64,000 bases of DNA. Origin: a phage. The stretch is taken from the sequence record PZ445451.1; one strand, 5' to 3'. Made by a program: the position numbers and the translations under genes. Below the pieces are notes generated by a model. It ran no database searches. It was not told the origin of the DNA and saw only the letters and a list, made by a program, of their open reading frames with translations. This document shows, piece after piece, positions 14,721-30,264 of this stretch; within the stretch, counting starts at the first letter, position 1, and every line of letters starts with the position of its first letter.

Positions 14721-14732
14721 AAGGAGTTTAAA

Positions 14733-15860
14733 ATGAAATACACGATTTATGGTGATATTGTAAGTGTAAATAAAGATATGGGCGTGGAATCTAACTATCT
14801 TCCACCTGGATTCTATACTGTTAGTCGTGATCCCCTTGGCAATTATTTTTTAAGCCGTGGTAATCTGACAGGTGTACCGGATGTTCTGTATGGTGAAACA
14901 GAAAAACGAGCAAATCACGTTATTCGTACATTCCATCGCCGGAGTGCACAAGGTAAAAATACAGGCTTGCTTCTGACAGGAACTAAGGGCAGTGGTAAAA
15001 CTATGTTAGCCAAACTCATTAGTCGTGACCTTGTAGAAGAAGGTATTCCAACTATTATGGTTACTCAAGCCTACAGTGATGCTAATTTCATTGAACTTAT
15101 TAGCAAGATCACAGACAAAGCAGTCATTATTTTTGACGAGTTTGATAAAGTATATGAGAAGAAACAAGATCAAGAAGCACTTCTCACTTTATTAGATGGT
15201 ACTGGCAGTGGTAATAAACTGTTTATTCTGACTAAAAACAGTGGTTTTATCTCTGAATTCTTTTTAAATCGTCCTAGTCGTGTGTTTTATAATTTTAATT
15301 ATGATAAAATCTCACTAGAAACTATGATTGACTATTTAGATAAAAACCTGGATAACAAAGCACACTTTGATAATTTCCAAAGACTTTGGGATGTAAGTTT
15401 AGAGTTGTCCTTTGATGTGATCCAAGGTATAGTAGAAGAACTTAATTTCTATCCTGATTTATCCTTTAAAGAATGCATCTCTATGATGGGCGTTTCTTTG
15501 GGTGGTGGTAATAAATGGGATATCAGCAGCGTTGTTATTAATGGAAAACTTCAGAAAGTTAGCTGGGTATCTAGTTGGCATAACTTCACACCTGCAATCT
15601 TTTTAGGTGGTTCGTGCACACTAGACGTGTACTTGTCATCTCCAAGTGATGCAGACTCTAAAGAAGCCCTTGCTAATAGCTCTTACGTGGTTTTTGATGA
15701 TGAAGGCGATGCTCGAATTCCATTGAATGCGACAAAAATGAAAGCAGATCTTATTACAGGCGGTAAAATAGTTGTGTTTAGTGATGATCCAGAAGATTCT
15801 TTCCGTATTGTTCTGGAACCAACTATCACCAATGGTGCAACTTTGGCAAGTGTGTTTTAA
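14733..15860 (+). CDS. AAA+ ATPase
   Basis: Track ORF; Walker A LLLTGTKGSGKTMLAK, Walker B VIIFDEFDKV; followed by rho-independent terminator. Confidence 0.7.
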   Translation: MKYTIYGDIVSVNKDMGVESNYLPPGFYTVSRDPLGNYFLSRGNLTGVPDVLYGETEKRANHVIRTFHRRSAQGKNTGLLLTGTKGSGKTMLAKLISRDLVEEGIPTIMVTQAYSDANFIELISKITDKAVIIFDEFDKVYEKKQDQEALLTLLDGTGSGNKLFILTKNSGFISEFFLNRPSRVFYNFNYDKISLETMIDYLDKNLDNKAHFDNFQRLWDVSLELSFDVIQGIVEELNFYPDLSFKECISMMGVSLGGGNKWDISSVVINGKLQKVSWVSSWHNFTPAIFLGGSCTLDVYLSSPSDADSKEALANSSYVVFDDEGDARIPLNATKMKADLITGGKIVVFSDDPEDSFRIVLEPTITNGATLASVF

Positions 15861-15876
15861 GTAAGCCAGCAAATAA

Positions 15877-15900
15877 AAACCCGCTTCGGCGGGTTTTCTT
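15877..15900 (+). terminator. Rho-independent terminator (CCCGC-TTCG-GCGGG-TTTTCTT)
   Basis: Seen directly after AAA+ ATPase gene. Confidence 0.7.
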
Positions 15901-15934
15901 GTATTAATACCAGATTTAATAAGAGGAGTAATAG

Positions 15935-17338: not shown

Positions 17339-17890
17339 ATGCGGATTACTGATAAGTATGTGTTCTTCTTTTCAGCAAAAGATGAATTTAGCAACTGGTA
17401 TCTATCATCTTTTATTGAACCTTTAGCACCCAAGTATAATAATTCTATTACAAGTTCTGTTGAATTTACTTGTGTGGAACAATATATGATGTGGAGAAAA
17501 GCATGTTTGTTTTATGATTACAGTATTGCATCTTCTATTTTAACCGGAGATCTAAGATATACAGGAGAAAAAGAACAAGCATATTATAAGCGACTAGGCA
17601 GATTAGTTAAAGATTATGATGAAGATACCTGGACTTCTTTACGGGAGAAGATTGTCAAACGTGGTTTGTATCTTAAATACACACAAAATGAAGATCTCAA
17701 AAATAAACTTATAGCCTACGCAGATAAGGAGTTCGTAGAGGCAAGCCCCTATGATTCTATTTATGGTATCAAAATGGGGATGTGGGATCGTGATGTGGAA
17801 AATAAGGACTGTTGGAAAGGACAAAATCTTTTAGGAAAATGGCATACAGACCTTGCTGTTTATCTAAAAACACAATCTGATATTTCCTGA
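17339..17890 (+). CDS. NADAR (YbiA/DUF1768) family protein
   Basis: Track ORF; FFFSAKDEFSNW..EQYMMWRKA..W..REKIVKRGLYLKYTQNEDLKNKL..EFVEASPYDSIYGIK..CWKGQNLLGK matches NADAR signature. Confidence 0.8.
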   Translation: MRITDKYVFFFSAKDEFSNWYLSSFIEPLAPKYNNSITSSVEFTCVEQYMMWRKACLFYDYSIASSILTGDLRYTGEKEQAYYKRLGRLVKDYDEDTWTSLREKIVKRGLYLKYTQNEDLKNKLIAYADKEFVEASPYDSIYGIKMGMWDRDVENKDCWKGQNLLGKWHTDLAVYLKTQSDIS

Positions 17891-18101
17891 TATTTTGAAA
17901 ATTTTTATTTTTATAAAAAGGGGTGTGGGTTTCATGTACGGAAATTCACCCTCTGCACAGTATATCCAGAGTAAGTAGTATTCTACACCCTGTTAATAAA
18001 GTATTTAATTTGTTTGTTGGACTATGGTATCTGATCTTTAAAAGGCATACTATCTCTTAACTACTACTTATAACAAAACAGTAAAATCATTTTTATAAAA
18101 A

Positions 18102-18307
18102 GGACAAAATTATTTAAAGTTTTTACAGATTTTTGGATACAAATTTTGAAAATGAAAAGTTCAAGTTTGGTCAAAATTATTTAAAGTTTTTGTACGTATT
18201 TCTATCCAGATTTTGAAAATGAAAACTTCAATTTTTTAAAAATTCCCCAGTTTATTTAAAGTTTTTTTGCCTTTTTCCGTAGAAAAATCAAAAATGAAAA
18301 GTTCAAT
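18102..18307. repeat. Three tandem ~65-70 bp direct repeats (TATTTAAAGTTTTT ... TTTTGAAAATGAAAAGTTCAA)
   Basis: Seen directly: copies start near 18109, 18176 and 18249, in a convergent intergenic region. Confidence 0.7.
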
Positions 18308-18330
18308 TTCGTGTTTTTATAGGTGTGCGT

Positions 18331-18442
18331 ATGATAATCATTCTCATTTGTAAATGAGAATCATTATCATTTAATTATGTAAGTGATAATCATTCTCAGT
18401 AAGAGAATGAGAATCATTAGCAAATGAGAATTTTTCTCATTT
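18331..18442. promoter_or_regulatory. Array of 5 alternately oriented Fur-box-like palindromic motifs (TGATAATCATTCTCATT / AATGAGAATCATTATC)
   Basis: Seen directly; motif shares GATAATCATT core with the Fur box consensus GATAATGATAATCATTATC. Confidence 0.55.
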
Positions 18443-18703
18443 AGAGAATAACGCGCAGGGGCGGTGTTTGTCTCGCGCTCCCGTGTCCCCTCGCCATACA
18501 ATAAGAATAGCATAACCAACAACAAAAGCAAGCGATTATTTTTATCTTTACATTTCTTTACAAATTTATTTTAGACGAGCTACCGGCGATCAACCTTCCA
18601 ACCAGTGCCCCCTGGTATGTTAGCCCCGCCTTTACGCCGTGGGGGTGGCGTTTCCTCTTCTGTATGTAAAACAGTATAAGCCCGATCCCTGGGCTTGTCA
18701 AGA

Positions 18704-18970
18704 TTATTTTTTGTTTTCTTGCCAGGAAAGGACACCTAACCAAAAATACATATCGCCCCGCGCCCCTGGCGGGATCTTGCTTTCCCCGCCGCCACTGCAA
18801 GCCCATAAATAACCATCAGCGAACGGATCAAAATGTTCTATCTCTTCCACCTTATGATCGCCCAGGTTGAGAACGGTTTCAATCTTTAAGCCCGTTGCGC
18901 TTGCTACCTGGTGCACCGTGCCGCCTTGCCAGCCCAATGAGTGCATGAGATGTAAAGGAGTATTTGTCAT
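18704..18970 (-). CDS. Hypothetical protein (88 aa) in a GC-rich segment
   Basis: Track ORF with AAAGGAG SD; local GC content clearly higher than the rest of the window. Confidence 0.45.
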   Translation of the reverse strand: MTNTPLHLMHSLGWQGGTVHQVASATGLKIETVLNLGDHKVEEIEHFDPFADGYLWACSGGGESKIPPGARGDMYFWLGVLSWQENKK

Positions 18971-19234: not shown

Positions 19235-19330
19235 ATGATCAAGAAAGAAAACAGCTTGACGGTTGGAACGATTAACGCTATCATTCTAGCCGTTCCATTT
19301 TGGATTGTAGTAGCGGTTGTTATTTTCTAA
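19235..19330 (+). CDS. Small hydrophobic peptide (31 aa, MIKKENSLTVGTINAIILAVPFWIVVAVVIF)
   Basis: Manual ORF; single TM-like segment; weak SD. Confidence 0.3.
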   Translation: MIKKENSLTVGTINAIILAVPFWIVVAVVIF

Positions 19331-19339
19331 AAAATATTC

Positions 19340-19397
19340 TTGACAACGTTTTTTAATCTGATAAGATGTATCACATAGGGCGGCAATAGTGCCGCTC
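19340..19397 (+). promoter_or_regulatory. sigma70-like promoter (TTGACA/TAAGAT) plus conserved 5' leader hairpin (GGGCGGCAATAGTGCCGCTC)
   Basis: Seen directly upstream of gene 19420. Confidence 0.6.
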
Positions 19398-19419
19398 ATA
19401 ACAGAAGAGAGAAATAATC

Positions 19420-19692
19420 ATGGCATCATATAGCGCATCAATGATCGTAACGGGCATGACTGGTAAACCTATGCGCGGTGGCGGATCTTTCGCTAACATC
19501 AATATTGATGGGCGTTTATCCCTGGATGCAGCGATCACCGTGGCACGGGAAACATTTAAAAAAGAATGTAATTTCAATAAACAAGATTATCTCGGCTTCG
19601 TTATTGAAAAAACAGCGCGCTTTGTTGATTATAAAAGCCCGAAAATGATCGACACTACACTAAAAGCGCAAGATGTAGCATTTTTGCTTTAA
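19420..19692 (+). CDS. Hypothetical protein (90 aa)
   Basis: Track ORF preceded by promoter-hairpin-SD (AGAAGAGAG) unit. Confidence 0.55.
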   Translation: MASYSASMIVTGMTGKPMRGGGSFANINIDGRLSLDAAITVARETFKKECNFNKQDYLGFVIEKTARFVDYKSPKMIDTTLKAQDVAFLL

Positions 19693-19695
19693 GGC

Positions 19696-19755
19696 TTGAC
19701 ACTGAAAAATAATTTAGTAATATATACCACATAGGGCGGGAAATGGTTTCCCGCC
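19696..19755 (+). promoter_or_regulatory. sigma70-like promoter (TTGACA/TAATAT) plus conserved leader hairpin (GGGCGGGAAATGGTTTCCCGCC)
   Basis: Seen directly upstream of gene 19778. Confidence 0.6.
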
Positions 19756-19777
19756 AAATCAAAGAAAGGGTAACACA

Positions 19778-20140
19778 ATGAGCAAGCAAATCAATACTAT
19801 CATGTTAAACCTGGTATCTTTCCGCGATGACGTGAAAAATCTTTCGCGTGATGCAGTGGATGCACGGATCGAAAGCTATCGCACACAGATCGCAACATTA
19901 CCGTTAAAACGTGATCAACATGCCGCTAATATGATGCTTGGTGCTATGATTAAAAAGATGATTCAGTGTGATCTTACCCTGGCTTATGAATATGCTGGCG
20001 ATCTCTTTGTAACGTATAATAAGCCCGTTCCAGGTATGAGCACCACGGAAGAATTGCATGCCTTAAATTTGCGACAAGATGCATGGGATAACATGCGCCG
20101 TGTTATGGTATGGGCCGAAAGCGGTAAAATTTACGAATAA
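19778..20140 (+). CDS. Hypothetical protein (120 aa)
   Basis: Track ORF after promoter-hairpin unit. Confidence 0.55.
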   Translation: MSKQINTIMLNLVSFRDDVKNLSRDAVDARIESYRTQIATLPLKRDQHAANMMLGAMIKKMIQCDLTLAYEYAGDLFVTYNKPVPGMSTTEELHALNLRQDAWDNMRRVMVWAESGKIYE

Positions 20141-20146
20141 AAACGG

Positions 20147-20200
20147 TTGACATTGCACTAAAACCTGATAAGCTATCTTAAAGCGGGAATTGTTCCCGCT
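20147..20200 (+). promoter_or_regulatory. sigma70-like promoter (TTGACA) plus leader hairpin variant (AGCGGGAATTGTTCCCGCT)
   Basis: Seen directly upstream of small gene 20219. Confidence 0.55.
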
Positions 20201-20218
20201 TACATAGGATAAAACTTT

Positions 20219-20365
20219 ATGAAACAATATGTAATGAGTATCCACACCAAAAACGGCGCTACTGTTACGACTCCGGCACGGTTTGCACTTGTAAACCGTT
20301 GCAAGAGACTAAAACGAGAGTTAAAAAATAACCGTGCAACGGGCTTTAAACGCTGGGGAGGATAA
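20219..20365 (+). CDS. Small basic protein (48 aa, MKQYVMSIHTKNGATVTTPARFALVNRCKRLKRE..)
   Basis: Manual ORF below size cut-off; follows promoter-hairpin unit; stop 2 nt before next start. Confidence 0.4.
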   Translation: MKQYVMSIHTKNGATVTTPARFALVNRCKRLKRELKNNRATGFKRWGG

Positions 20366-20367
20366 TC

Positions 20368-20628
20368 TTGTTTTTTCTAAAAGTTTGTGATAATGTGATC
20401 GCTTTTGAACATGCTACAACGTTCGACCTGGCGAGATACGCTATCAGGTTTAAAGATAATGTTTATCCCCGTGCTGGCGGCGGTTACACTATTTTTAATC
20501 ACCGTAACGCTCAATTAACGGATATAACTAATCCAGATCCTGGAGTGTATCGGATAGGCTGGCTACCGTCAAAAGACGCTGCAAGCATGTTTAAGGTGTG
20601 TAAACTACTAACAGAAGAGGCGAACTAA
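20368..20628 (+). CDS. Hypothetical protein (86 aa), probable TTG start
   Basis: Track ORF; start codon TTG preceded by GGGGAGGA SD. Confidence 0.45.
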   Translation: MFFLKVCDNVIAFEHATTFDLARYAIRFKDNVYPRAGGGYTIFNHRNAQLTDITNPDPGVYRIGWLPSKDAASMFKVCKLLTEEAN

Positions 20629-20629
20629 C

Positions 20630-21184
20630 ATGGGGCGTGAATATGTGATCCAGTCCTGGGTAAAGCATGATGCTAATGATCCGCGCATAATACCAGATGA
20701 CATGATCGATCACATGGTAGGGTATAGCGGGGAGCAGATAGGAAATCGAGCGGCAAAGAGCAACGGCAACACCAGGACGCGATCCGTTCGTCCTGGATGG
20801 CTGGCGAATGGTAACGCTGACATTGCAAGCGCCGCAGATCCAAGCGATGACGCTAAAAATAATCCCTTGTACAGCATTGATCCGGCTTTTAAGGTGTTGG
20901 AAGAGTATCCCGCTAAATTAGCCGCACTAGATAAGGCATACGAAGAAAAGCGCATGGCCTGGACTGTATACAACACCGCTAAAATGGTGCTAGATGCAAA
21001 ACTAATTAAAGCCCAGGAGAAGATCAATAAACTTGTTACCATAGCGCAAGAGGAAGACCAGGGCGACCAGGAGGAAGAGGAAGAAATCATGCCTACCCTG
21101 GAAGAGGAAGAGATCCAGCCATACATGCCGACAGAAGAGGAAAAAAGACAAGCCCTAAAAAATTATGAAAATTGCATTGTGTAA
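20630..21184 (+). CDS. Hypothetical protein (184 aa) with acidic C-terminal tail
   Basis: Track ORF; C-terminus EEDQGDQEEEEEIMPTLEEEE. Confidence 0.55.
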   Translation: MGREYVIQSWVKHDANDPRIIPDDMIDHMVGYSGEQIGNRAAKSNGNTRTRSVRPGWLANGNADIASAADPSDDAKNNPLYSIDPAFKVLEEYPAKLAALDKAYEEKRMAWTVYNTAKMVLDAKLIKAQEKINKLVTIAQEEDQGDQEEEEEIMPTLEEEEIQPYMPTEEEKRQALKNYENCIV

Positions 21185-21187
21185 GGC

Positions 21188-21244
21188 TTGACATATGCAA
21201 ACAAGCCCCGTAATATGTACCACATAAAGCGGGGCAACGCCCCA
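21188..21244 (+). promoter_or_regulatory. sigma70-like promoter (TTGACA-N17-TAATAT) plus leader hairpin variant (GCGGGGCAACGCCCC)
   Basis: Seen directly. Confidence 0.55.
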
Positions 21245-21265
21245 TAAGGTGAAATAAAAAATCAC

Positions 21266-21293
21266 TTGACACCTGAAATCAGTAAGCTATAAT
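21266..21293 (+). promoter_or_regulatory. Near-consensus sigma70 promoter (TTGACA-N16-TATAAT), second of a tandem pair
   Basis: Seen directly, about 40 nt upstream of gene 21331. Confidence 0.6.
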
Positions 21294-21330
21294 GCTTATA
21301 TAGATTGAAACATTACTAAGGAATAAAAGC

Positions 21331-21510
21331 ATGGCTATTATTGCAAAGACTGAGATCGTAGGTTTAGATTCTATCATCCTGGCATATGAGGAAGCTATAG
21401 AAATGTATGTGGTTTCCTATGGTGATTATATCCGTGAATATAAATCTATTGATCTAGCTTTTGAATGCTATATTCGCCAGGTCAATAAAGCATATGATGA
21501 TTATCGTTAA
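21331..21510 (+). CDS. Small hypothetical protein (59 aa)
   Basis: Manual ORF just below size cut-off (MAIIAKTEIVGLDSIILAYEE..), downstream of tandem promoters. Confidence 0.45.
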   Translation: MAIIAKTEIVGLDSIILAYEEAIEMYVVSYGDYIREYKSIDLAFECYIRQVNKAYDDYR

Positions 21511-21529
21511 AAGTTTTAGTCTTGTGCTA

Positions 21530-21558
21530 TTGACAACGAACGATAGTACAAGCATAAT
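21530..21558 (+). promoter_or_regulatory. sigma70-like promoter (TTGACA-N17-CATAAT)
   Basis: Seen directly upstream of gene 21606; no leader hairpin in this copy. Confidence 0.5.
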
Positions 21559-21605
21559 AACTTTTATCGGGAATACTCCTAACTAATCAAAAGAGATTAA
21601 AGACT

Positions 21606-21971
21606 ATGGCTAAAAATATCAATGTTTCTGCTTATGCTACCCTGGCTAACACTGCTAAAATTGAACTATCCAGCATTGAAGCGGTACATATTAGCGCCCG
21701 TCGCTGGTTTCAAAAGTCTTATGGTAATACTTATTTCTCTTTGATGGTTGACGTTGAGATCGGCGGTAAACTGATCGAAGTAGTTAACGTTCCGTTTCAA
21801 TATGGTTATGGGGATCATTTTGATACCGTTGCCCTAGAAGAGTTTAGCAAGGTTATCAACCTGGAAGGTAAAGAGTTTTCAAATTATGCTTACCTTTCCC
21901 GCTTTTGCCGTGATAATGGGATCGCTGTATACAGTCATGCAAGCGATGTAAAACGTAAAAAAGATTTATAA
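21606..21971 (+). CDS. Hypothetical protein (121 aa)
   Basis: Track ORF. Confidence 0.55.
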   Translation: MAKNINVSAYATLANTAKIELSSIEAVHISARRWFQKSYGNTYFSLMVDVEIGGKLIEVVNVPFQYGYGDHFDTVALEEFSKVINLEGKEFSNYAYLSRFCRDNGIAVYSHASDVKRKKDL

Positions 21972-21977
21972 AAAGCA

Positions 21978-22036
21978 TTGACAGCACGAATAAAAAGCAT
22001 ATAATACTTATATCGAGAGCGGGAATAGTTCCCGCC
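21978..22036 (+). promoter_or_regulatory. sigma70-like promoter (TTGACA/TATAAT) plus leader hairpin (GCGGGAATAGTTCCCGC)
   Basis: Seen directly upstream of gene 22060. Confidence 0.6.
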
Positions 22037-22059
22037 TCACTGAAAAAGAGATTAACATC

Positions 22060-22299
22060 ATGGCTAAATCTAAAATGTACAACGGTCACAAAAATAAAAC
22101 TCATTGGAATGTAAGCCTTTGGATTAATAATGATGAATCGTTATACTTATACGCTGTAGGTTTAATAAATGAGTGCGGCAATAAAGATAAAGCGGCGGAT
22201 CTGATGTGCTACAGATTAAAACAGGATGGAATCACTCATACACCTGATGGTTTCAAGTATAGTAAAACTGCAATCCGTGCCGCTATGGTAGGAATGTAA
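22060..22299 (+). CDS. Hypothetical protein (79 aa)
   Basis: Track ORF after promoter-hairpin unit. Confidence 0.55.
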   Translation: MAKSKMYNGHKNKTHWNVSLWINNDESLYLYAVGLINECGNKDKAADLMCYRLKQDGITHTPDGFKYSKTAIRAAMVGM

Positions 22300-22308
22300 T
22301 AAAAGCAG

Positions 22309-22368
22309 TTGACAACGTTTTTTAATCTGGTATAGTTTATCGCATAGGGCGGGAAATGGTTTCCCGCC
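22309..22368 (+). promoter_or_regulatory. sigma70-like promoter (TTGACA/TATAGT) plus conserved leader hairpin (GGGCGGGAAATGGTTTCCCGCC)
   Basis: Seen directly; identical hairpin to 19734 copy. Confidence 0.6.
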
Positions 22369-22390
22369 AAATCAAAGAAAGGTTATCATT

Positions 22391-22618
22391 ATGGCTATCG
22401 TTATTGTTCGCGTATCCGGCACGGTTGGAATCTCCCAGGTAGTAGCAGTTATCACCGAGAAGAAAGGGGATGATCTTCACTCCTCATTGAATAGCTGGGC
22501 GGTCGCTAACTTTGGGCAATGGTCGAGCGTTGAGTACATCGAATCCTACCAGGTGCCAACGATTAGCCTGACCGATCTCAACGTTGATCGTCTGTTATGC
22601 CTGGATCAATTAAACTAA
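22391..22618 (+). CDS. Hypothetical protein (75 aa)
   Basis: Track ORF after promoter-hairpin unit. Confidence 0.55.
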   Translation: MAIVIVRVSGTVGISQVVAVITEKKGDDLHSSLNSWAVANFGQWSSVEYIESYQVPTISLTDLNVDRLLCLDQLN

Positions 22619-22626
22619 AAATAATA

Positions 22627-22684
22627 TTGACAAGACAACTAAAATTAGTAAAATGTAATTCATAGGGCGGCAATAGTGCCGCCC
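22627..22684 (+). promoter_or_regulatory. sigma70-like promoter (TTGACA/TAAAAT) plus leader hairpin (GGGCGGCAATAGTGCCGCCC)
   Basis: Seen directly; perfect 8-bp stem. Confidence 0.6.
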
Positions 22685-22705
22685 CTAGTAAGAGAGATTA
22701 TCAAA

Positions 22706-22921
22706 ATGGCTAATATCCGCACCTTGTTAAAAAATGCAAAGCAAGTTTTATTTTCAGATGACGAGTATTTCAACAAAGACATTACAGGCGTGAAAAATTT
22801 AAAAGACGTGAAGGATGTTATCGGTATCCGTGGATCTTTACGTAAAGGTGACATATACGGTAACAAGGTGCAATATAAACTGTCAAAAGATTATGATTTT
22901 ACTTTGACAATTATTTCATAA
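22706..22921 (+). CDS. Hypothetical protein (71 aa)
   Basis: Track ORF; start moved to MANIRT (ATG 22706) because the track start lies inside the leader hairpin. Confidence 0.55.
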   Translation: MANIRTLLKNAKQVLFSDDEYFNKDITGVKNLKDVKDVIGIRGSLRKGDIYGNKVQYKLSKDYDFTLTIIS

Positions 22922-22927
22922 AACTAC

Positions 22928-22988
22928 TTGTAAACCTGGTAAAATAAAGTAAACTATATTCATCAAGGCGGTGGAATAGCCCACCGCC
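22928..22988 (+). promoter_or_regulatory. Weak promoter-like sequence plus leader hairpin variant (GGCGGTGGAATAGCCCACCGCC)
   Basis: Seen directly; stem arms co-vary relative to other copies. Confidence 0.5.
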
Positions 22989-23012
22989 TAACAAAGAGAA
23001 GAGGAAAACATC

Positions 23013-23183
23013 ATGATCACTTTCACTACCCGTGAAGCCGCTCGCAACGTTGCACGTAAAGTTAACGCCGCCAACCTGGGCGCTACGCTTAAAGCCCCGG
23101 TGAAAGATGAATCAGGAAAATGGATCTTTCCTGGTCTGCGTCACGCTGATAAGCTGGGAACATTAACGTTAAAAAATAAATAA
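23013..23183 (+). CDS. Small hypothetical protein (56 aa, MITFTTREAARNVARKVNAANLGATLKAP..)
   Basis: Manual ORF below size cut-off; AGAGAAGAGG SD after hairpin. Confidence 0.45.
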   Translation: MITFTTREAARNVARKVNAANLGATLKAPVKDESGKWIFPGLRHADKLGTLTLKNK

Positions 23184-23190
23184 TATCCGC

Positions 23191-23249
23191 TTGACAGTAG
23201 CATCGTTTATAAGTAAAGTAACAACAACGGCGGGAAATGGTTTCCCGCC
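23191..23249 (+). promoter_or_regulatory. sigma70-like promoter (TTGACA/TAAAGT) plus leader hairpin (GGCGGGAAATGGTTTCCCGCC)
   Basis: Seen directly upstream of gene 23270. Confidence 0.6.
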
Positions 23250-23269
23250 ATCAATAAAGAGATAAGATT

Positions 23270-23629
23270 ATGAAATCAGTAAAAGCAATTAAAACTTACA
23301 TTGTGTCGGCTATTTCTTTTGATGGTACTACAACCGAAAAAGAAAAAATCACCGAACTGATGCGCCGTTTTAACTCTGAATACTGGTATCAATCTAATCG
23401 TGATCGTTATAATAACAATATGGTACAAGCTGTTAAAAGCTGGTTACAAGGTTTACCGTCAGATATCAATATCGCTTTTAATTATAACGAGATCGATCAA
23501 TTATTAATTGAATGGAAGTACATAAAAGAAACAAGCAAAGAAACAACCGTTACCCGTGAGCGGGAAAATTATTGGTTATATATTGCAAGCATGATCGTAA
23601 CTTTGGCAAAATATCATAACGTAGCGTAA
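23270..23629 (+). CDS. Hypothetical protein (119 aa)
   Basis: Track ORF after promoter-hairpin unit. Confidence 0.55.
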   Translation: MKSVKAIKTYIVSAISFDGTTTEKEKITELMRRFNSEYWYQSNRDRYNNNMVQAVKSWLQGLPSDINIAFNYNEIDQLLIEWKYIKETSKETTVTRERENYWLYIASMIVTLAKYHNVA

Positions 23630-23643
23630 TCGAGAGGAAAAAC

Positions 23644-23781
23644 ATGAACGCATCACAGCAGATCGAAAAATTCAACCGCAACAAAGCGAGTAAAGATTGG
23701 AACGAAGAGATCACCAAGAAAGGCGACAAGCGGAACAAAACAAAAAGAGATCGCAGCAGCAAAAGATACTGGAACGAATAA
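23644..23781 (+). CDS. Small basic protein (45 aa)
   Basis: Manual ORF; GAGAGGAAAAAC-ATG SD; followed directly by terminator. Confidence 0.4.
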   Translation: MNASQQIEKFNRNKASKDWNEEITKKGDKRNKTKRDRSSKRYWNE

Positions 23782-23782
23782 C

Positions 23783-23809
23783 AAAAAAGGGCGCAATAAG
23801 CGCCCTTTT
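23783..23809 (+). terminator. Rho-independent terminator (GGGCGC-AATAA-GCGCCC-TTTT)
   Basis: Seen directly. Confidence 0.65.
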
Positions 23810-23899
23810 AGCTTATATAGAGGCTTGTTGCTTATAGGCAAGGGTAACGCCAGGATAAGCCTATAAACCACGTTAGACGGCTTTACAGGAGCTTTAAAA

Positions 23900-24082
23900 A
23901 TGAAATTAGAGGAAATAAGCAAGGCACTAGCCCAGGGGCAAAGGTTATGCGCCCGATATCGTGATCAATATGGCTTCATAACTAGCGGCGTGATCCTGGG
24001 GATGGAAGGCAATAAGATTTTTATTGACACGTTGAAAAACGTTGTATATAGTGACAATATAATCTCAATAAAACATATATGA
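23900..24082 (+). CDS. Hypothetical protein (60 aa)
   Basis: Track ORF; GGAG SD. Confidence 0.45.
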   Translation: MKLEEISKALAQGQRLCARYRDQYGFITSGVILGMEGNKIFIDTLKNVVYSDNIISIKHI

Positions 24083-24090
24083 GGCAAGAA

Positions 24091-24492
24091 ATGAAAAAAT
24101 TATTGATCGCTGGTTTACTCTCTTTTGGCATGGTTGGAACATCTAGCGCGGCGATATCCTCCACAGTAGCAGAATTAAGCGCCGTTGATGCAATGGAAAA
24201 CGTCATGATCATTAATAATGCGATCCCCGATGAAATCATGGAGGATTCACACATGATCGCTTATGGTGCTGTTACACAACTAACGGCAAAAATAGATAAA
24301 TCTATTGTTAATGGCTTAAATGAAGATGTACCATGTGAAATTATTACCAGTGTGCTCACTACTCAAAATTTTACGCCGTGGCTAAAAAGTATTCAAAAAG
24401 TACACAGTACAGCCGCAGATCGTAGCAATGAAAAACTAGTGTCAGCACTTGCAACGTATACCCTAGCAAAATGCACCGAAATAAAAGATTGA
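24091..24492 (+). CDS. Putative secreted protein (133 aa)
   Basis: Track ORF; start moved to MKKLLIAGLLSFGMVGTSSA (signal-peptide-like) with GAGG SD. Confidence 0.55.
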   Translation: MKKLLIAGLLSFGMVGTSSAAISSTVAELSAVDAMENVMIINNAIPDEIMEDSHMIAYGAVTQLTAKIDKSIVNGLNEDVPCEIITSVLTTQNFTPWLKSIQKVHSTAADRSNEKLVSALATYTLAKCTEIKD

Positions 24493-24517
24493 CAACATAG
24501 AAAGCACGTTATAAGAT
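24489..24517 (+). promoter_or_regulatory. sigma70-like promoter (TTGACA-N17-TAAGAT)
   Basis: Seen directly; -35 overlaps stop of upstream gene. Confidence 0.5.
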
Positions 24518-24539
24518 ACACACAACAAAGGAGAACTAC

Positions 24540-24842
24540 ATGAACGGCATAGCTAAAACGTTTTTTCTTTTTTCTGGTGTAAATGATCCATCAATAAAAG
24601 TCGATAGCGTAAAAGAAAACAATACTATCACCGCTAAATTGTTTCAAGATGAAACAAATAACGTGCTAATCATTAATCTTAAAGAAATAACAAAAGGTTA
24701 TTATACTATTGCTTACCATGCGATCTATAATGCTGGTACTAGTGAGGAAGTGCAAACAAGCAACAACGAAAGCGCGGCGCTACCTGGTGATCTGGTGCTG
24801 GGCGTTATCAGTTTAATTGTCAATGATTTTTTTAAGGAGTAA
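24540..24842 (+). CDS. Hypothetical protein (100 aa)
   Basis: Track ORF; AAAGGAG SD. Confidence 0.5.
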   Translation: MNGIAKTFFLFSGVNDPSIKVDSVKENNTITAKLFQDETNNVLIINLKEITKGYYTIAYHAIYNAGTSEEVQTSNNESAALPGDLVLGVISLIVNDFFKE

Positions 24843-25100
24843 AACCATGCCCTATTTACATTTATTTTTCGGTATCTTATTGACAGGATCTTTTTTCTTC
24901 TGTATGCTTGTTTCTATTGTAAACCACGTTTTAAAACATTAAGGAAACAGCATGAAAATTATTCCCGTACAGTATAGCGTAATAAATCCAGCATATGAGG
25001 AAGGAAGGAAAACAAGCATGGCTTTATGTTGTATTGCTACTATAGCCATGTTATTATACACTGTGTTTTAATAGGTTTTATAGTTGTACGCTTTAAAGGC

Positions 25101-25153
25101 TTGACAATTTTTTGTTATGCTTTAAAATATATCTTGAAAACGGCAAAGGCCGC
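25101..25153 (+). promoter_or_regulatory. sigma70-like promoter (TTGACA/TAAAAT) plus short leader hairpin (CGGCAAAGGCCG)
   Basis: Seen directly upstream of gene 25172. Confidence 0.5.
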
Positions 25154-25171
25154 AAACAAAAGGGTAAAATT

Positions 25172-25495
25172 ATGAAATCTGTGATCGGTGTTTATTTGGA
25201 TAATTCTGATTTTTTCTATCATCGCGCTCGTTTCCTTGATGCTATTGATATGATAGAATCAGGCTTTAAAGAATACCGCCTTGCACATGATGACCTGGAA
25301 GCATTACAGGGCAATAGTGTTTTTACATTGCAAGCGAAAGCACTATGTAAAAGCCGGATCGACATTGCGAGCAAAAAGATAGAACGCGGCATGTCCTGGT
25401 TGCGCACCGCAGAAATCAACATGGGGCAATGGTACGGCAAAAACTTAGAAAATAAACATACCTTTGTCAATGTAGAAAATATTGAAGATTATTGA
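25172..25495 (+). CDS. Hypothetical protein (107 aa)
   Basis: Track ORF; start moved to MKSVIGVY downstream of the promoter. Confidence 0.55.
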   Translation: MKSVIGVYLDNSDFFYHRARFLDAIDMIESGFKEYRLAHDDLEALQGNSVFTLQAKALCKSRIDIASKKIERGMSWLRTAEINMGQWYGKNLENKHTFVNVENIEDY

Positions 25496-25558
25496 TTGAC
25501 AGCACATCTAACGAGTAGTATATTGTATCTCATAGAGCGGGGAAATGGTTTCCCCGCC
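25496..25558 (+). promoter_or_regulatory. sigma70-like promoter (TTGACA-N17-TATATT) plus leader hairpin (GCGGGGAAATGGTTTCCCCGC)
   Basis: Seen directly; stem lengthened by one compensated G-C pair. Confidence 0.6.
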
Positions 25559-25577
25559 TTAAAAGAAGAGATAAGCT

Positions 25578-25862
25578 ATGAAGATCACAAAAGCACTTTC
25601 CAACTATGCAGCACGTCGCGGATTATGCTTATCCGTTGAAAACTTAGGGAAAGAAGATTTTTTGTGTTTTTGGGAGCTTGAAAATGAAAGTGAATGGTTG
25701 TTCTCTTATTCTATCTGCGAAGATCAAAACGGTTGTTTGTTAACCTGGCGCGGTAATATCTATCTACCGGAAGAAATCAAAGAAGAATTGCCAGGCACGA
25801 TCATGACTGAGAAACAGCTTAAGGAAGTGATTAATTTTGTAGGGCAAAACATTAAAAAATAA
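25578..25862 (+). CDS. Hypothetical protein (94 aa)
   Basis: Track ORF after promoter-hairpin unit. Confidence 0.55.
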   Translation: MKITKALSNYAARRGLCLSVENLGKEDFLCFWELENESEWLFSYSICEDQNGCLLTWRGNIYLPEEIKEELPGTIMTEKQLKEVINFVGQNIKK

Positions 25863-25863
25863 T

Positions 25864-25922
25864 TTGACACTAGGCAAACAACGTAGTAAAGTTTATCACA
25901 TAGGGCGGCAATAGTGCCGCTC
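25864..25922 (+). promoter_or_regulatory. sigma70-like promoter (TTGACA-N17-TAAAGT) plus leader hairpin (GGGCGGCAATAGTGCCGCTC)
   Basis: Seen directly; same hairpin variant as 19379. Confidence 0.6.
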
Positions 25923-25943
25923 ATAACAGAAGAGAAACAAATC

Positions 25944-26114
25944 ATGATCCCGACTATGTTTTATGTATCGCGCAAAGGTCACAATATTTTTTGGTCTGAA
26001 GATTTAAATGAAGCCATGACGTTTGCCCGTGATCGTGTTGCTATCGGTGGCGTTAACATTACTGTAACCGATGAAAACGGCATTGAATACTATAACGGCG
26101 ACGATGAAGAGTAA
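25944..26114 (+). CDS. Hypothetical protein (56 aa)
   Basis: Track ORF; start moved to MIPTMFYV because the track start lies in the hairpin. Confidence 0.5.
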   Translation: MIPTMFYVSRKGHNIFWSEDLNEAMTFARDRVAIGGVNITVTDENGIEYYNGDDEE

Positions 26115-26121
26115 TTAATAA

Positions 26122-26142
26122 GGCGGGGGAGTATTCCCCGCC
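26122..26142 (+). promoter_or_regulatory. Leader-type hairpin (GGCGGGGGAGTATTCCCCGCC) without an upstream promoter
   Basis: Seen directly between genes 25944 and 26162. Confidence 0.5.
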
Positions 26143-26161
26143 GTCAATAAAGAGGTAAATC

Positions 26162-26431
26162 ATGAAAATATCTTTGGACGTTGCAATCAAGGCCATCGAA
26201 TCCGGTTACACCCTGGTAAAAGATGATAAGGCTAAAATAGTGCATCATGTTAACAAGGAAACAGGCGAAAGCATGATCACATATAAAGCCGCCTACTTTC
26301 TCCAATCAGTAGCAGATCCGCGCGTACAACGCCAGGTTACAGCGGCTATTGCTAAAAAATTATGTGCTTTACAGGGCACAAGTTTTAACGAGATCGCCCC
26401 GTGTTTTGACTGGTCGAGCTTGAAAAAATAG
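26162..26431 (+). CDS. Hypothetical protein (89 aa)
   Basis: Track ORF; AAAGAGG SD after hairpin. Confidence 0.55.
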   Translation: MKISLDVAIKAIESGYTLVKDDKAKIVHHVNKETGESMITYKAAYFLQSVADPRVQRQVTAAIAKKLCALQGTSFNEIAPCFDWSSLKK

Positions 26432-26432
26432 T

Positions 26433-26494
26433 TTGACAATATGCTGTTATCTGGTAAAGTGTACGACATAGGGCGAGGCAATAAGGCAACGCCC
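26433..26494 (+). promoter_or_regulatory. sigma70-like promoter (TTGACA/TAAAGT) plus divergent leader hairpin (GGGCGAGGCAATAAGGCAACGCCC)
   Basis: Seen directly. Confidence 0.5.
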
Positions 26495-26513
26495 ATTAAT
26501 GAGGGGTAGAATC

Positions 26514-26618
26514 ATGTTAGAGAAAATTTTCACGGTTGTAATAGTGGGCCTGGCGTTATCGGTTGGATTGGTTGCAACTATGGCTAACATGATCCTATCT
26601 TCCCACGGTATTGGATAA
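26514..26618 (+). CDS. Small hydrophobic peptide (34 aa, MLEKIFTVVIVGLALSVGLVATMANMILSSHGIG)
   Basis: Manual ORF; GAGGGG SD; first ORF after the promoter-hairpin unit. Confidence 0.3.
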   Translation: MLEKIFTVVIVGLALSVGLVATMANMILSSHGIG

Positions 26619-26628
26619 GGTGAATCAA

Positions 26629-26844
26629 ATGATCACGAATAAGACAGGTAAAACAGAATTTTTACGCAGCTTGCAAATAGGTAAACCTGAGATCTGGCAT
26701 TGCACTAAATCCGCGCATAATGAAATGAAAGATTTTACCGCTACTTTACAACGTGTTAAAATATCTATCACACAGAAAAAAGCCTTGTTAGTAGTAGAAA
26801 ACGAGATCCCGCAAACCATTATTATTGTCGAGCGTACAGCATGA
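26629..26844 (+). CDS. Hypothetical protein (71 aa)
   Basis: Track ORF; start moved to MITNKTGK (AAGGTGA SD). Confidence 0.5.
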   Translation: MITNKTGKTEFLRSLQIGKPEIWHCTKSAHNEMKDFTATLQRVKISITQKKALLVVENEIPQTIIIVERTA

Positions 26845-27227
26845 AAACTGAAATCATTAACGAAATGATCAACGGCTATAAAGAAGCCTTTATTTTTGCC
26901 GAACCAGCGACGGATCACAATGGGGAATATATTGAGAATCTAGACGATTATGATTTTTCTCCTAGCGCCCTGAAACGTATTACCAGCGATGTGACCGCCT
27001 TTTGTAGTGCCAATGTTGCCGCTATCTCTGAGGCAATGAGCGACGGCGCTACAGCAAACCAGATCGGGAATGATTTACATTTTACCCGTAACGGTCACGG
27101 CGTAGGTTTTTGGGATCGCCCTGAAATATACACTACTAACACCGCCAACCGTTTAACTGATGCAGCTAAATTAATGCCATTGGTGCATGCTTACATTGGT
27201 GAAGATAATTTGATTTATATTGACTAA
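26841..27227 (+). CDS. Hypothetical protein (128 aa)
   Basis: Track ORF; ATGA overlap with upstream gene. Confidence 0.55.
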   Translation: MKTEIINEMINGYKEAFIFAEPATDHNGEYIENLDDYDFSPSALKRITSDVTAFCSANVAAISEAMSDGATANQIGNDLHFTRNGHGVGFWDRPEIYTTNTANRLTDAAKLMPLVHAYIGEDNLIYID

Positions 27228-27232
27228 AAGTG

Positions 27233-27291
27233 TTGACACCGATCCCCAATATGTTATTATTTACCACGTAAGCGGGAAATGGTTTCCCGCC
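27233..27291 (+). promoter_or_regulatory. sigma70-like promoter (TTGACA/TATTAT) plus leader hairpin (GCGGGAAATGGTTTCCCGC)
   Basis: Seen directly. Confidence 0.6.
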
Positions 27292-27314
27292 AGGTAATCA
27301 AAAAGGTAAATACT

Positions 27315-27704
27315 ATGCGCAACCTGGTTTCTGTTTCTAACGTTGAAAAATTTCAATCTTTACAGGGTATCGTTAACAACGTAGCGCCTTTTTTAGTCAA
27401 CGGCTTGATTGCAAAGATGAAAAATAAACATCATGCGGCATGGTCTGCTTACTGCTTTGATAATGATGAAAAAGCGGCTGAAATGATGCTAAATATGCTG
27501 TTAGACAGTGTAGAATCATCTTTACCGGAAAACATCGCAGAAGAGATCACCTATCGTTATAATATGGCGATCACTTACCAGGAGGTTGCGCAATTTAATA
27601 TGATGGACGATGACGAACAACAGGATCAGGAAATGTTTTGGGAGTATGCTGATCGTCAATCGGCTTTTGATGAAAAATTAGCGATGTATTATAACGAATA
27701 TTAA
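27315..27704 (+). CDS. Hypothetical protein (129 aa)
   Basis: Track ORF; start moved to MRNLVSVS downstream of hairpin. Confidence 0.55.
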   Translation: MRNLVSVSNVEKFQSLQGIVNNVAPFLVNGLIAKMKNKHHAAWSAYCFDNDEKAAEMMLNMLLDSVESSLPENIAEEITYRYNMAITYQEVAQFNMMDDDEQQDQEMFWEYADRQSAFDEKLAMYYNEY

Positions 27705-27714
27705 TACACGGTAA

Positions 27715-27745
27715 AAGAAAGGGGCGCACTAAGCGCCCTTTTTTG
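27715..27745 (+). terminator. Rho-independent terminator (GGGGCGC-ACTAA-GCGCCC-TTTTTT)
   Basis: Seen directly. Confidence 0.7.
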
Positions 27746-28089
27746 TATTCTTTTTTCACGATGGAAACAACACGTAAAGAATAGGCGTAAAGGTGGCGTA
27801 AAACCATCTAAAACCGACTGTAACCGCTTAAACAAGGTAGGAATGATTAATCACCTTACCAGGGTGAAAAAGCTGTTATAAAGCTACCTAGAGCGTTTAA
27901 AGCACATAGGGAATAATTTGCTTTTTATCTTGCCTTTTATCCTGCTTTTGATTATTATTATGGAACGGGCGGCACCTGGGGACAGGGGAAGATAATCACC
28001 GGAAGATCCCGCTATATATTGATAGCTAATACCTATTAAACAACAAAACATCAAAGGAATAAACTATCAAATCTTTACAATCCTACCTA

Positions 28090-28150
28090 TTGACACAGGA
28101 TCACCCTTATACTAATATGTATCCCGTAGGGCGGGAAATGGTTTCCCGCT
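28090..28150 (+). promoter_or_regulatory. sigma70-like promoter (TTGACA-N17-TAATAT) plus leader hairpin (GGGCGGGAAATGGTTTCCCGCT)
   Basis: Seen directly. Confidence 0.6.
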
Positions 28151-28168
28151 TGATATAGGAATCATACC

Positions 28169-28402
28169 ATGATCGAACAAATTAAAAGCACTACACCAAA
28201 TGTTAACGGCAATGTTTCACACTTTATCGGTGATAATGAAAGGGGCACACCATACGCCGCCGTAACCGTGCAACCTAATGGCGATTATTGGTTTACCGTG
28301 TACGGATCATACTCTTTCGGACGCCCGGCACATGATAAGATCTTGCAAGCGGTTAAACCTGCGGGGAAGAATATCACAGCAGAAAAATTTTATAAAAAAT
28401 AG
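28169..28402 (+). CDS. Hypothetical protein (77 aa)
   Basis: Track ORF after promoter-hairpin unit. Confidence 0.55.
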   Translation: MIEQIKSTTPNVNGNVSHFIGDNERGTPYAAVTVQPNGDYWFTVYGSYSFGRPAHDKILQAVKPAGKNITAEKFYKK

Positions 28403-28403
28403 C

Positions 28404-28432
28404 TTGCTTTATTTCTTCTGTTAACTTATAGT
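28404..28432 (+). promoter_or_regulatory. sigma70-like promoter (TTGCTT-N17-TATAGT)
   Basis: Seen directly; leader hairpin degenerate here. Confidence 0.45.
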
Positions 28433-28477
28433 TATCGCGTAGGGCAAACAATTTTAAACGGTAAACGAGGAATCACC

Positions 28478-28861
28478 ATGAGCAATATCATCAACCTGGC
28501 AGCGACTGTAAACGGTAAAGATTTTAACGGCGCTGTAGACCGTGATCCTATGTGGTGCTTATCAGTGTTTAAAGGCGACCTGGTTGAAGTTAGAACAACC
28601 GAAGGCTATAGCGATGATTATAAATGCGAGATCCATTTACATAACTGGTACACGGGGAAAACTTATGCGCTGAATCACGCATTTATCGGGAAAATTGAAT
28701 ATCGCGAAATGATCGACGAAGAAACGGGGCAAGATTTTAGCGATTATGTTTATATCCGTTCAGAAACATTAGCCGAACGCTTGATCGAGAAAATGAAAGC
28801 AAAAAATAAAATTAATTTAGCTCATTGGCTTGATATAACAAATGATCCGGCTTACAAGTAA
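28478..28861 (+). CDS. Hypothetical protein (127 aa)
   Basis: Track ORF; ACGAGGAA SD. Confidence 0.55.
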   Translation: MSNIINLAATVNGKDFNGAVDRDPMWCLSVFKGDLVEVRTTEGYSDDYKCEIHLHNWYTGKTYALNHAFIGKIEYREMIDEETGQDFSDYVYIRSETLAERLIEKMKAKNKINLAHWLDITNDPAYK

Positions 28862-28876: not shown

Positions 28877-28903
28877 AGGGCGCACAAAGCGCCCTTTCTT
28901 TTT
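28877..28903 (+). terminator. Rho-independent terminator (AGGGCGC-ACAAA-GCGCCCT-TTCTTTTT)
   Basis: Seen directly; ends the small-gene array. Confidence 0.7.
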
Positions 28904-29106: not shown

Positions 29107-29184
29107 TAAATGATAATCATTCTTATTTATAGCTGATTATTTATGCAATAAACTGCATAATGCAATAATGATAATCATTCTTAA
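29107..29184. promoter_or_regulatory. Two Fur-box-like sites (AAATGATAATCATTCTTA; ATAATGATAATCATTCTTA)
   Basis: Seen directly; second copy matches 16 of 18 positions of Fur consensus ATAATGATAATCATTATC. Confidence 0.55.
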
Positions 29185-29542
29185 CTTATGACCATCTAAC
29201 CTATAAAATAATAAGTTATCTAACTAAATTAAAACTAATTATCCCACCTTTATTTATAACTTACTTTTACTATCTCATTGATAACCTTATATTAAACAAC
29301 AATAACCAATATAAATCATTACTAAGCTAACTATAATCTATCTAACCCTTAAAACTATAACTATAATCTATCGAATTGTTGCACAAAGTAACTATTAAAT
29401 TGTTAGTAACTTTACTAAATAATTAATATCCTATCTATTTATGATCTAATCTTTACCTTACTATCTATTACCTAAATAACCATTTCATACAGAAATTATT
29501 TCATACAATAACTATAACAAGAAATATAATTCGCAAGCGTAT

Positions 29543-30042: not shown

Positions 30043-30066
30043 ATGCAAATGATAATCATTATCAGC
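30043..30066. promoter_or_regulatory. Fur-box-like site (GCAAATGATAATCATTATC)
   Basis: Seen directly; AATGATAATCATTATC is a 16/16 match to the 3' part of the Fur consensus. Confidence 0.6.
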
Positions 30067-30229: not shown

Positions 30230-30264
30230 GAATGATAATGCAAATGATAATTATTCTCATTGAT
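30230..30264. promoter_or_regulatory. Fur-box-like site (GAATGATAATGCAAATGATAATTATTCTCATT)
   Basis: Seen directly. Confidence 0.5.

Follow-up and report, generated by a model that had tools for sequence, protein, structure and literature searches.

The closest described relatives of the element treated here are the promoter-early stem-loop (PeSL) cassettes of T4-like phages, which have been found in RB49/phi1, PST/T4 and nt-1/KVP40 (Arbiol et al. 2010, PMC2839356; Comeau et al. 2014, PMC4122927). A PeSL combines a sigma70-like promoter with a stem-loop and is located before ORFans in hyperplastic regions. Recombination between PeSLs shuffles genes and yields mini-circles, and the stem-loop was shown to cut lacZ expression like a terminator (PMC2839356, PMC4122927). 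Whether such cassettes extend beyond the T4-like phages was left open by the PeSL authors (PMC2839356, PMC4122927). Here, a repeated promoter-hairpin cassette is described from a cluster of small genes at positions 19340-28480 of a 64,000-nt stretch of phage DNA (PZ445451.1, hereafter the window). With moderate confidence, the unit is read as a modular cassette for early gene expression, in which the hairpin would form at the 5' end of its own mRNA and protect, stabilise or insulate the transcript.

Positions 19300-28500 of the window correspond with 100% identity to record positions 83975-93175 of Escherichia phage PaulScherrer (Bas60, MZ501100.1), a 150-kb myovirus of the genus Justusliebigvirus (phi92-like) in the subfamily Stephanstirmvirinae. 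Record positions of MZ501100.1 are converted to window positions by subtracting 64675. The region is a plastic early-gene cluster of a phi92-like phage, in which the same unit returns in front of gene after gene: an UP-like A/T tract is followed by a near-consensus sigma70 promoter, about 10 nt, a GC hairpin, an A-rich leader, a GAG-type ribosome site and the ATG. A preliminary description made from the letters of the window had already noted this repetition of promoter, leader hairpin and ribosome site, and the anatomy of the cassettes bears it out. At all 16 positions which it listed an inverted repeat is present, 13 of them strong and three weak or bulged (21230, 25141 and 26471). The perfect TTGACA/TATAAT promoter reported at 21266-21293 is likewise there, with a 16-nt spacer, and a second such promoter lies at 21978-22005. 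The claim that almost every gene has its own promoter was too generous; the actual share is about two thirds, and the remaining genes are grouped in short operons.

In a consensus scan, 51 promoter-like sites were found against 34 expected. Of the 23 sites that score at least 10/12, 20 are on the plus (gene) strand. Eighteen gene-strand promoters have an exact TTGACA, a TAnnnT -10 hexamer and a spacing of 16-17 nt. A strong hairpin follows 9-12 nt past the -10 in 13 gene-strand promoters, and a weak one in three more. The strong hairpins (n = 13, marked in Table 1) are GC-rich, with 7-10 bp and a dG of -12 to -19 kcal/mol. A whole-genome hairpin scan located GCGG-type promoter-linked hairpins only at window 19378-28151, all of them on the plus strand, and the motif GGGCGGGAAATGGTTTCCCGCC occurs five times when up to 3 mismatches are allowed, against 0 expected. 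The spacing was also determined in a set drawn from ten loci, with 93 promoter-linked hairpins in total. In 77 of them the hairpin begins 9-12 nt past the -10 (mode 10, full range 6-15 nt). The hairpin end and the ATG are separated by 17-25 nt.

For the folding of the leaders, the transcription start was assumed to be the purine about 8 nt past the -10, a position that is predicted rather than mapped. In the 13 predicted 5' untranslated regions folded in this way, 2-7 nt (mostly 3-4) are unpaired ahead of the hairpin. The hairpin is the dominant fold (z -1.7 to -4.0), and in most of them the ribosome site and the ATG are open. The earlier proposal that the hairpin sits at the 5' end of the mRNA agrees with this predicted geometry, with 3-4 unpaired nt past the likely start.

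The pairing of the stem is supported by covariation, as the preliminary description had claimed. A plain MAFFT alignment of all hairpins placed the stems out of register and was dropped, and a loop-anchored set of equal length was used instead. Among its 32 distinct copies, 94.8% of the cells pair, against 79.5% in shuffled alignments (0 of 500 shuffles reach the observed value). Both sides change in six of the nine pairs, and slid controls stay at or below 65%. For 70 distinct model hits in nine relatives the corresponding values are 93.6% paired and 77.1% shuffled, with changes on both sides in seven of the nine pairs; part of the covariation comes from the same G/C palindrome being shifted in register by one or two steps (7- versus 9-bp versions). 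Clean cases are found in the window (GGCGG-CA/UG-CCGCC, GGCGG-UGG/CCA-CCGCC and GGCGG-GGGA/UCCC-CCGCC) and in the jumbo phage SHEFM2K (GGGGAGAA/UUCUCCCC and GGUGGGGAA/UUCCCCACU). The pairing of the stem is thus under selection.

The strand on which mismatched pairs are tolerated points to RNA. When both strands are scored alike and relatives are included, internal sense-strand G:T pairs outnumber A:C pairs by 17 to 7, and in the core stem by 16 to 3. By themselves, the window copies are uninformative in this respect; relatives and symmetric scoring are both needed for the asymmetry to become visible. Such a bias favours a fold of the sense transcript rather than a site read in double-stranded DNA, in line with the RNA-level structure postulated before.

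The hairpins might be mistaken for intrinsic terminators, since they too are GC-rich and intergenic, and some genome annotations label cassette copies as such. Intrinsic terminators, however, follow genes and carry a U-tract, whereas the cassette hairpins follow promoters and have an A-rich tail: the 8 nt on their 3' side contain on average 1.4 T and 4.1 A, and no U-tract. None of the cassette hairpins on the plus strand passes a terminator scan, while three separate terminators of the same cluster do. The loops differ as well. In 25 of the 33 unique cassette hairpins the loop is U(G/A)G or AU(G/A)G, closed by A-U pairs, whereas the terminator-like hairpins of the genome mostly have C(UUCG)G or C(GAAA)G loops. 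On these grounds and that of the location after a promoter, an identity as intrinsic terminator was rejected. Moreover, the hairpin lies 3' of the cassette's own start, and if transcription really ended there, the transcript of the gene that it precedes would be aborted too. In the records of phage Paula (LR865361) and vB_Eco_PATM, cassette hairpins are labelled 'terminator', mostly on the strand opposite to the genes; these labels are probably an artefact of automatic terminator prediction.

A covariance model (R1) was built from related copies of the hairpin. On the PaulScherrer genome it matches only within window 19373-28156 (plus strand) and once at record 59344-59375 (minus strand), co-oriented before a minus-strand gene. 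In relatives it gives 104 hits. The same layout is found in phi92, Paula, inny and muut (Justusliebigvirus), in ESCO13, AV125 and WPEC2 (Phapecoctavirus or close to it) and in MaxBurger (Vequintavirus). With other stems it is also found in the 348-kb jumbo coliphage SHEFM2K, which has at least 17 copies at positions 3500-18450. Its cassettes contain a variant promoter (agtaCTTGCA-N17-gTATAAT), a ACATCAAG box and, among other stems, GGGGAGAA/TTCTCCCC. SHEFM2K has an apparent counterpart of the gene at 22706; the two share the same N-terminal coding sequence and have different hairpins at the same position. Several SHEFM2K genes behind cassettes have phi92, phAPEC8 or PVP-SE1 genes as their annotated top hits, which suggests that cassette-flanked genes may move between unrelated phage families. 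A single 82-nt cassette used as query matched 386 places in 119 phage records, where the element is unannotated or called 'terminator'.

A covariance-model search, as the preliminary description had proposed, thus recovers the hairpin in related phage genomes; Rfam, for its part, has no match. With the whole window and the gathering thresholds of Rfam release 15 there were no hits; at permissive thresholds, the best hits in the 19-29 kb region were far under the cut-offs and unrelated. General full-text searches of the literature on rV5-, phi92- or phAPEC8-like phages, which did not include the phi92 and PVP-SE1 genome papers, brought up no description of the element, and it is absent from the rV5, Felix O1, BASEL and BME3 Justusliebigvirus papers and from the PA5oct jumbo-phage preprint. 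A search for transcription-start or RNA-seq data on these phages likewise gave no result. The earlier statement that this is not a described motif therefore holds as far as Rfam families are concerned; it does not hold with respect to the PeSL cassettes of T4-like phages, a described relative (PMC2839356, PMC4122927).

The preliminary description overlooked the second role proposed for PeSLs, namely that recombination between cassettes shuffles genes, and the breakpoints of insertions and deletions in the cluster fit such a role. A comparison of the cluster with seven relatives gave 29 unique alignment breakpoints. Seventeen of them fall within cassettes. With a cassette share of 15.8% of the region, this is an enrichment (binomial p = 2e-7), but one that is largely expected from the intergenic location because selection for intact genes alone would give most of it. 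Within 10 nt of a cassette lie 21 of the 29. For instance, 269 bp are inserted in inny at 21997/21999, and a stretch of 269 bp (22670-22940) is deleted in muut. At many junctions the adjacent alignment blocks overlap by 7-31 nt, as an exchange from cassette to cassette would give, and these overlaps are a better argument for recombination than the enrichment is. The crossover points are scattered across the entire cassette, without a focus on the hairpin.

The mechanism which we infer from these data is the following. If, as expected, the host RNA polymerase starts at the purine predicted above, the transcript would open with 3-4 free nt, immediately followed by the hairpin. Such a 5'-terminal hairpin should hinder the 5'-end-dependent decay (RppH, RNase E entry) of the A/U-rich, unstructured leader. 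Emory, Bouvet and Belasco (1992) reportedly found with the ompA leader that 5'-terminal stem-loops with very few unpaired 5' nt stabilise E. coli mRNAs. The hairpin would also keep the leader from pairing with the downstream coding sequence, whichever gene follows. Any small gene placed behind a cassette would in this way gain strong, early expression. At the same time, a cassette of about 80 nt present in many copies would provide homology for the deletion, insertion and swapping of genes among related phages, as was proposed for PeSLs. Recombination between cassettes would then be a by-product that drives gene turnover. This reading is favoured because different lineages keep one spacing to the promoter but not the same stem sequences, because terminator features are lacking and a terminator past its own start would be self-defeating, because the 3' end of the hairpin approximately coincides with the 5' edge of the ribosome footprint, and because the G:U pairs favour the sense strand.

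Several observations weigh against this mechanism. The start is a consensus guess, and a start 2-3 nt further upstream would leave a free tail of 5-6 nt, which would protect less well. The copy at 26122, which has no promoter, lies within a transcript, and a 5'-end role at this position would need prior cleavage. The absence of a promoter, which had been pointed out before, is real, and Paula, inny, muut and AV125 keep the same arrangement. The strong cluster promoters at 21266, 21530, 24024 and 24489 are without a hairpin. The G:U excess is drawn from related copies and perhaps represents 6-8 independent events. The cassettes constitute 63% of the non-coding DNA and hold 17 of the 20 non-coding breakpoints. 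Finally, the apex AAU(R)GUU is kept across lineages beyond the needs of stability, and the loops are not of the most stable kinds; together, these two features hint at sequence-specific recognition.

Such recognition is the core of the main rival explanation, in which a trans-acting RNA-binding protein of phage or host origin would bind the hairpin and switch the early genes jointly off or on, as a translational repressor, a processing enzyme or a promoter-proximal antiterminator. This explanation is regarded as possible but doubtful. The apex A-A-U-(A/G)-G-U-U recurs in 25 of the 33 unique hairpins, the jumbo phage included, on a variable lower stem, and a pre-stem box (CAUAG/CGUAG/CAUCAAG) is conserved too. 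The terminators of the same genome use thermodynamically favoured tetraloops, and the cassette loops are of other kinds. About 20 consensus promoters, or their products, must also be shut off later in infection. Recent common descent and gene conversion among the copies could, however, also account for the conservation of the apex. In addition, within one genome the loop (3-6 nt), the stem (5-10 bp) and the sequences (GGCGGCA, GGCGGUGG, GCGGGGAAA) all vary, the hairpin resembles neither boxB/nut nor put nor any Rfam family, and no candidate binding protein was identified for it. In its most far-reaching form, held with the same reserve, the element would be a new cis-regulatory RNA family of phi92-like, phAPEC8-like, rV5-like and 350-kb jumbo coliphages, in which a dedicated factor reads the 5' apex and controls the timing, stability or translation of the takeover genes. 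Both a stabiliser and the operator of an RNA-binding regulator had been considered in the preliminary description, and sequence alone does not decide between them.

The remaining explanations are less likely. The hairpin could act on upstream transcripts, as was proposed for PeSLs, and isolate each gene as an attenuator or terminator or as a barrier to 3'-end exonucleases. Insulation would be useful among densely packed strong promoters, the promoterless copy at 26122 is situated directly 3' of a stop codon, and annotation pipelines do call the hairpins terminators. For the RB49/phi1 PeSL, the stem-loop placed between promoter and lacZ lowered expression about as much as rrnB T1 (PMC2839356). 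The cassette hairpins nevertheless fail the terminator scan that the three canonical terminators of the cluster pass, have A-rich tails in place of a U-tract, and mostly bear their 'terminator' annotations on the wrong strand. Termination 3' of the cassette's own start would kill its own transcript, which the RB49 hairpin avoids by its place inside the promoter. On balance, an effect on upstream transcripts is considered unlikely.

Still less probable is a function of the inverted repeat as DNA, either as the operator of a dimeric repressor that blocks the polymerase past the start, or as a cruciform or target of a recombination protein. A palindrome at about +5 to +25 occupies the classic roadblock position, and the outer half-sites GGCGG/CCGCC are conserved within the Stephanstirmvirinae. 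For GGGG...CCCC stems, Arbiol et al. speculated about recombination-protein targets, and the breakpoints are clustered in cassettes. The crossovers, however, are spread over the whole cassette and not centred on the hairpin. The spacing of the half-sites varies from 8 to 12 nt, the stem substitutions are compensatory, with a different stem (GGGGAGAA) in another lineage, and the 16-to-3 asymmetry of sense-strand G:T versus A:C is not predicted by recognition of double-stranded DNA. A double-stranded DNA operator was rejected for the variable spacing, the compensatory changes and the strand asymmetry. That the hairpin is a functionless passenger of a promoter cassette spread through duplication and gene conversion is very improbable: many copies are identical or nearly so, some cluster promoters lack a hairpin and three copies have decayed, but pairing, position and spacing are kept by different stem sequences in four phage lineages, non-homologous hairpins occupy the same place before apparently homologous genes, and the pairing far exceeds that in shuffled and slid controls.

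The positions of the cassettes and of the canonical terminators of the cluster are collected in Table 1.

Table 1. Cassettes and intrinsic terminators of the early-gene cluster (window positions; strong hairpins are marked as such)
Feature	Position	Strand	Promoter	Hairpin	ATG	Remarks
Early-gene cluster	19340-28480	+				about 28 small genes, about 20 with their own sigma70-type promoter; MZ501100.1 record 84015-93155
Cassette 1	19340-19422	+	TTGACA-16-TAAGAT, 19340-19367	GGGCGGCAauagUGCCGCUC, 19378-19397, strong	19420	
Cassette 2	19696-19780	+	19696-19723	GGCGGGAAAuggUUUCCCGCC, 19735-19755, strong	19778	
Cassette 3	20147-20221	+	20147-20174	AAGCGGGAAuugUUCCCGCUU, 20181-20201, strong	20219	
Double promoter	21188-21333	+	21188-21216; perfect consensus, 21266-21293	weak, 5 bp, 21230-21242, after the first promoter	21331	second promoter without hairpin
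Cassette	21978-22062	+	perfect, 21978-22005	GCGGGAAuagUUCCCGC, 22019-22035, strong	22060	hairpin extendable to 22015-22039
Cassette	22309-22393	+	22309-22336	22348-22368, strong	22391	hairpin sequence as in cassette 2
Cassette	22627-22708	+	22627-22654	GGGCGGCAauagUGCCGCCC, 22665-22684, strong	22706	
Weaker-promoter cassette	22928-23015	+	TTGTAA-16-TAAACT, 22928-22955	AGGCGGUGGaauagcCCACCGCCU, 22966-22989, strong	23013	
Cassette	23191-23272	+	23191-23219	23229-23249, strong	23270	
Canonical intrinsic terminator	23785-23809	+		GGGCGC-loop-GCGCCC		T run; class distinct from the cassette hairpins
Remnant cassette	25101-25174	+	25101-25128	4-bp remnant, 25141-25152	25172	
Cassette	25496-25580	+	25496-25524	GCGGGGAAAuggUUUCCCCGC, 25537-25557, strong	25578	
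Cassette	25864-25946	+	25864-25892	25903-25922, strong	25944	hairpin sequence as in cassette 1
Promoterless copy	26122-26164	+		GGCGGGGGAguaUUCCCCGCC, 26122-26142, strong	26162	ribosome site present; directly 3' of the stop codon of the upstream gene
Cassette	26433-26516	+	26433-26460	bulged, GGGCG...CGCCC, 26471-26494	26514 (likely)	
Cassette	27233-27317	+	27233-27260	27272-27290, strong	27315 (likely)	
Canonical intrinsic terminator	27716-27744	+		GGGCGC-loop-GCGCCC		T run; from the terminator scan
Cassette	28090-28171	+	28090-28118	28129-28151, strong	28169	
Degenerate cassette	28404-28480	+	TTGCTT-17-TATAGT, 28404-28432	3' arm gone	28478	CGTAGGGC box retained; T4 gp30.8-like gene
Canonical intrinsic terminator	28877-28895	+		GGGCGC-loop-GCGCCC		T run; closes the cluster

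All of the approximately 28 plus-strand genes of the cluster are annotated as 'hypothetical protein', and non-coding DNA flanks the run of genes on either side. The view that the encoded proteins are all small orphans needs correction. Ten cluster proteins were searched, and all ten belong to PHROG families, each of unknown function; one is DUF7249 and one a homologue of T4 gp30.8. The genes are thus shared accessory genes rather than true orphans. For the mechanism, the protein family searches of these ten genes provided no hint, only function-unknown families. Two start-codon assignments are affected by the cassettes: the GenBank starts of bas60_0137 (window 26499) and bas60_0140 (27279) fall within the cassette leader or hairpin, and the in-frame ATGs at 26514 and 27315, respectively, are the likelier starts by their usual spacing to the ribosome site.

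Two further units of promoter, 5' hairpin and ribosome site are located outside the cluster, which means that the architecture is not confined to it. One is at window 63273-63331 on the minus strand (stem AGGAGAGCgtaGCTCTCCT), and the other is the minus-strand copy at PaulScherrer record 59344-59375, beyond the window, where the stem GCGGAGGAttgTCCTCCGC follows CATAGA.

The DNA next to the cluster has features of its own. An 18-nt inverted repeat (window 18695-18712 and 19329-19346; TTGTCAAGATTATTTTTT / AAAAAATATTCTTGACAA) is shared by two promoters, one on the minus strand (18701) and the other that of the first cassette (19340): their -35 hexamers, together with the A/T tracts, are mirror copies of each other. 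The mirrored promoters mark a divergent early control region. At window 18089-18309, immediately before the cluster, three tandem A/T-rich repeats (TTTAAAGTTTTT ... GAAAATGAAAAGTTCAA), 67 and 75 nt apart, look iteron-like. Fur-box-like palindromes are clustered at window 18330-18441, 29109-29185, 30045-30066 and 30243-30261. The E. coli Fur consensus GATAATGATAATCATTATC has six hits with up to 3 mismatches, against 0.03 expected, and the local motif AATGATAATCATTCTCATT has 11, against 0.05 expected. In the whole genome, Fur-like sites are found only in the non-coding DNA that flanks the cassette cluster, with a weak hit at 5072 as the single exception. Conservation of the sites extends to Paula, phi92 (one copy in the right terminal repeat), muut and ESCO13, and MaxBurger has two matches. 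These sites may link early transcription or replication to iron and Fur.

Composite promoter-hairpin cassettes would be a general route by which large virulent phages, beyond the T4-like ones, express accessory early genes and exchange them. More than 100 deposited genomes contain the element without annotation or under the wrong label 'terminator', and calls of start codons have been misled as well. As a marker, a cassette flags small genes as probably immediate-early, which could aid the search for host-takeover and anti-defence proteins. The cassette is also a compact natural part (strong promoter, 5' hairpin and open leader) and as such a candidate mRNA stabiliser or insulator.

Besides intrinsic terminators, three known systems offer themselves for comparison. 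In lambda nut boxB and HK022 put, a small RNA hairpin is likewise transcribed soon after an early promoter. These occur once or twice per early operon, however, whereas each tiny gene has its own hairpin here, and the cassettes have neither a boxA-like partner nor the two-hairpin fold of put nor an Rfam match. The 5'-terminal stabiliser stem-loops are represented by the hairpin of the ompA 5' untranslated region and by the T7 gene 10 leader hairpin, which is used in pET vectors. As in these, a stable hairpin is located a few nt from the (here predicted) 5' end and is followed by an open leader and a ribosome site, and a similar protection from 5'-end-dependent RNase E/RppH decay might be expected by analogy. 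The stabilisers are single, experimentally proven cases, whereas the cassettes form a multi-copy family with a conserved apex, known from sequence.

PeSLs come closest. Both elements are composite repeats of about 70-80 bp with many copies per genome, and both precede small, functionally uncharacterised genes in regions that are plastic and expressed early. The order of parts is also the same: an AT-rich upstream tract, a near-consensus sigma70 promoter, a GC-rich stem-loop, a conserved leader, a ribosome site and the start codon. Where close relatives differ by gene-sized insertions, deletions or replacements, these changes have their ends in the cassettes in both systems, a pattern that in the present cluster is largely expected from the intergenic position of the cassettes. 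The phages differ, with Straboviridae on one side and Stephanstirmvirinae, Vequintavirinae and a jumbo coliphage on the other. The geometry differs as well. PeSL stem-loops are placed within the promoter or upstream of it. In RB49, the hairpin lies between the -35 and -10 or across the -10, and hence outside its own transcript, whereas here it follows 6-15 nt after the -10 and would be inside. Direct inspection of RB49 showed stems of the type GGGGATC...GATCCCC or GGGAGTA...TACTCCC. In a 30-kb plastic region of this phage, R1 found no homologue; its only hit there is weak and falls on a symmetric hairpin located between two convergent genes. A terminator function was reported for PeSL hairpins, whereas the present ones have no terminator features in their sequence. 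Taken together, the two elements have the concept and the genomic role in common, but not the sequence and geometry, and the cassette described here is best seen as an analogue or variant of the PeSL rather than a member of that family.

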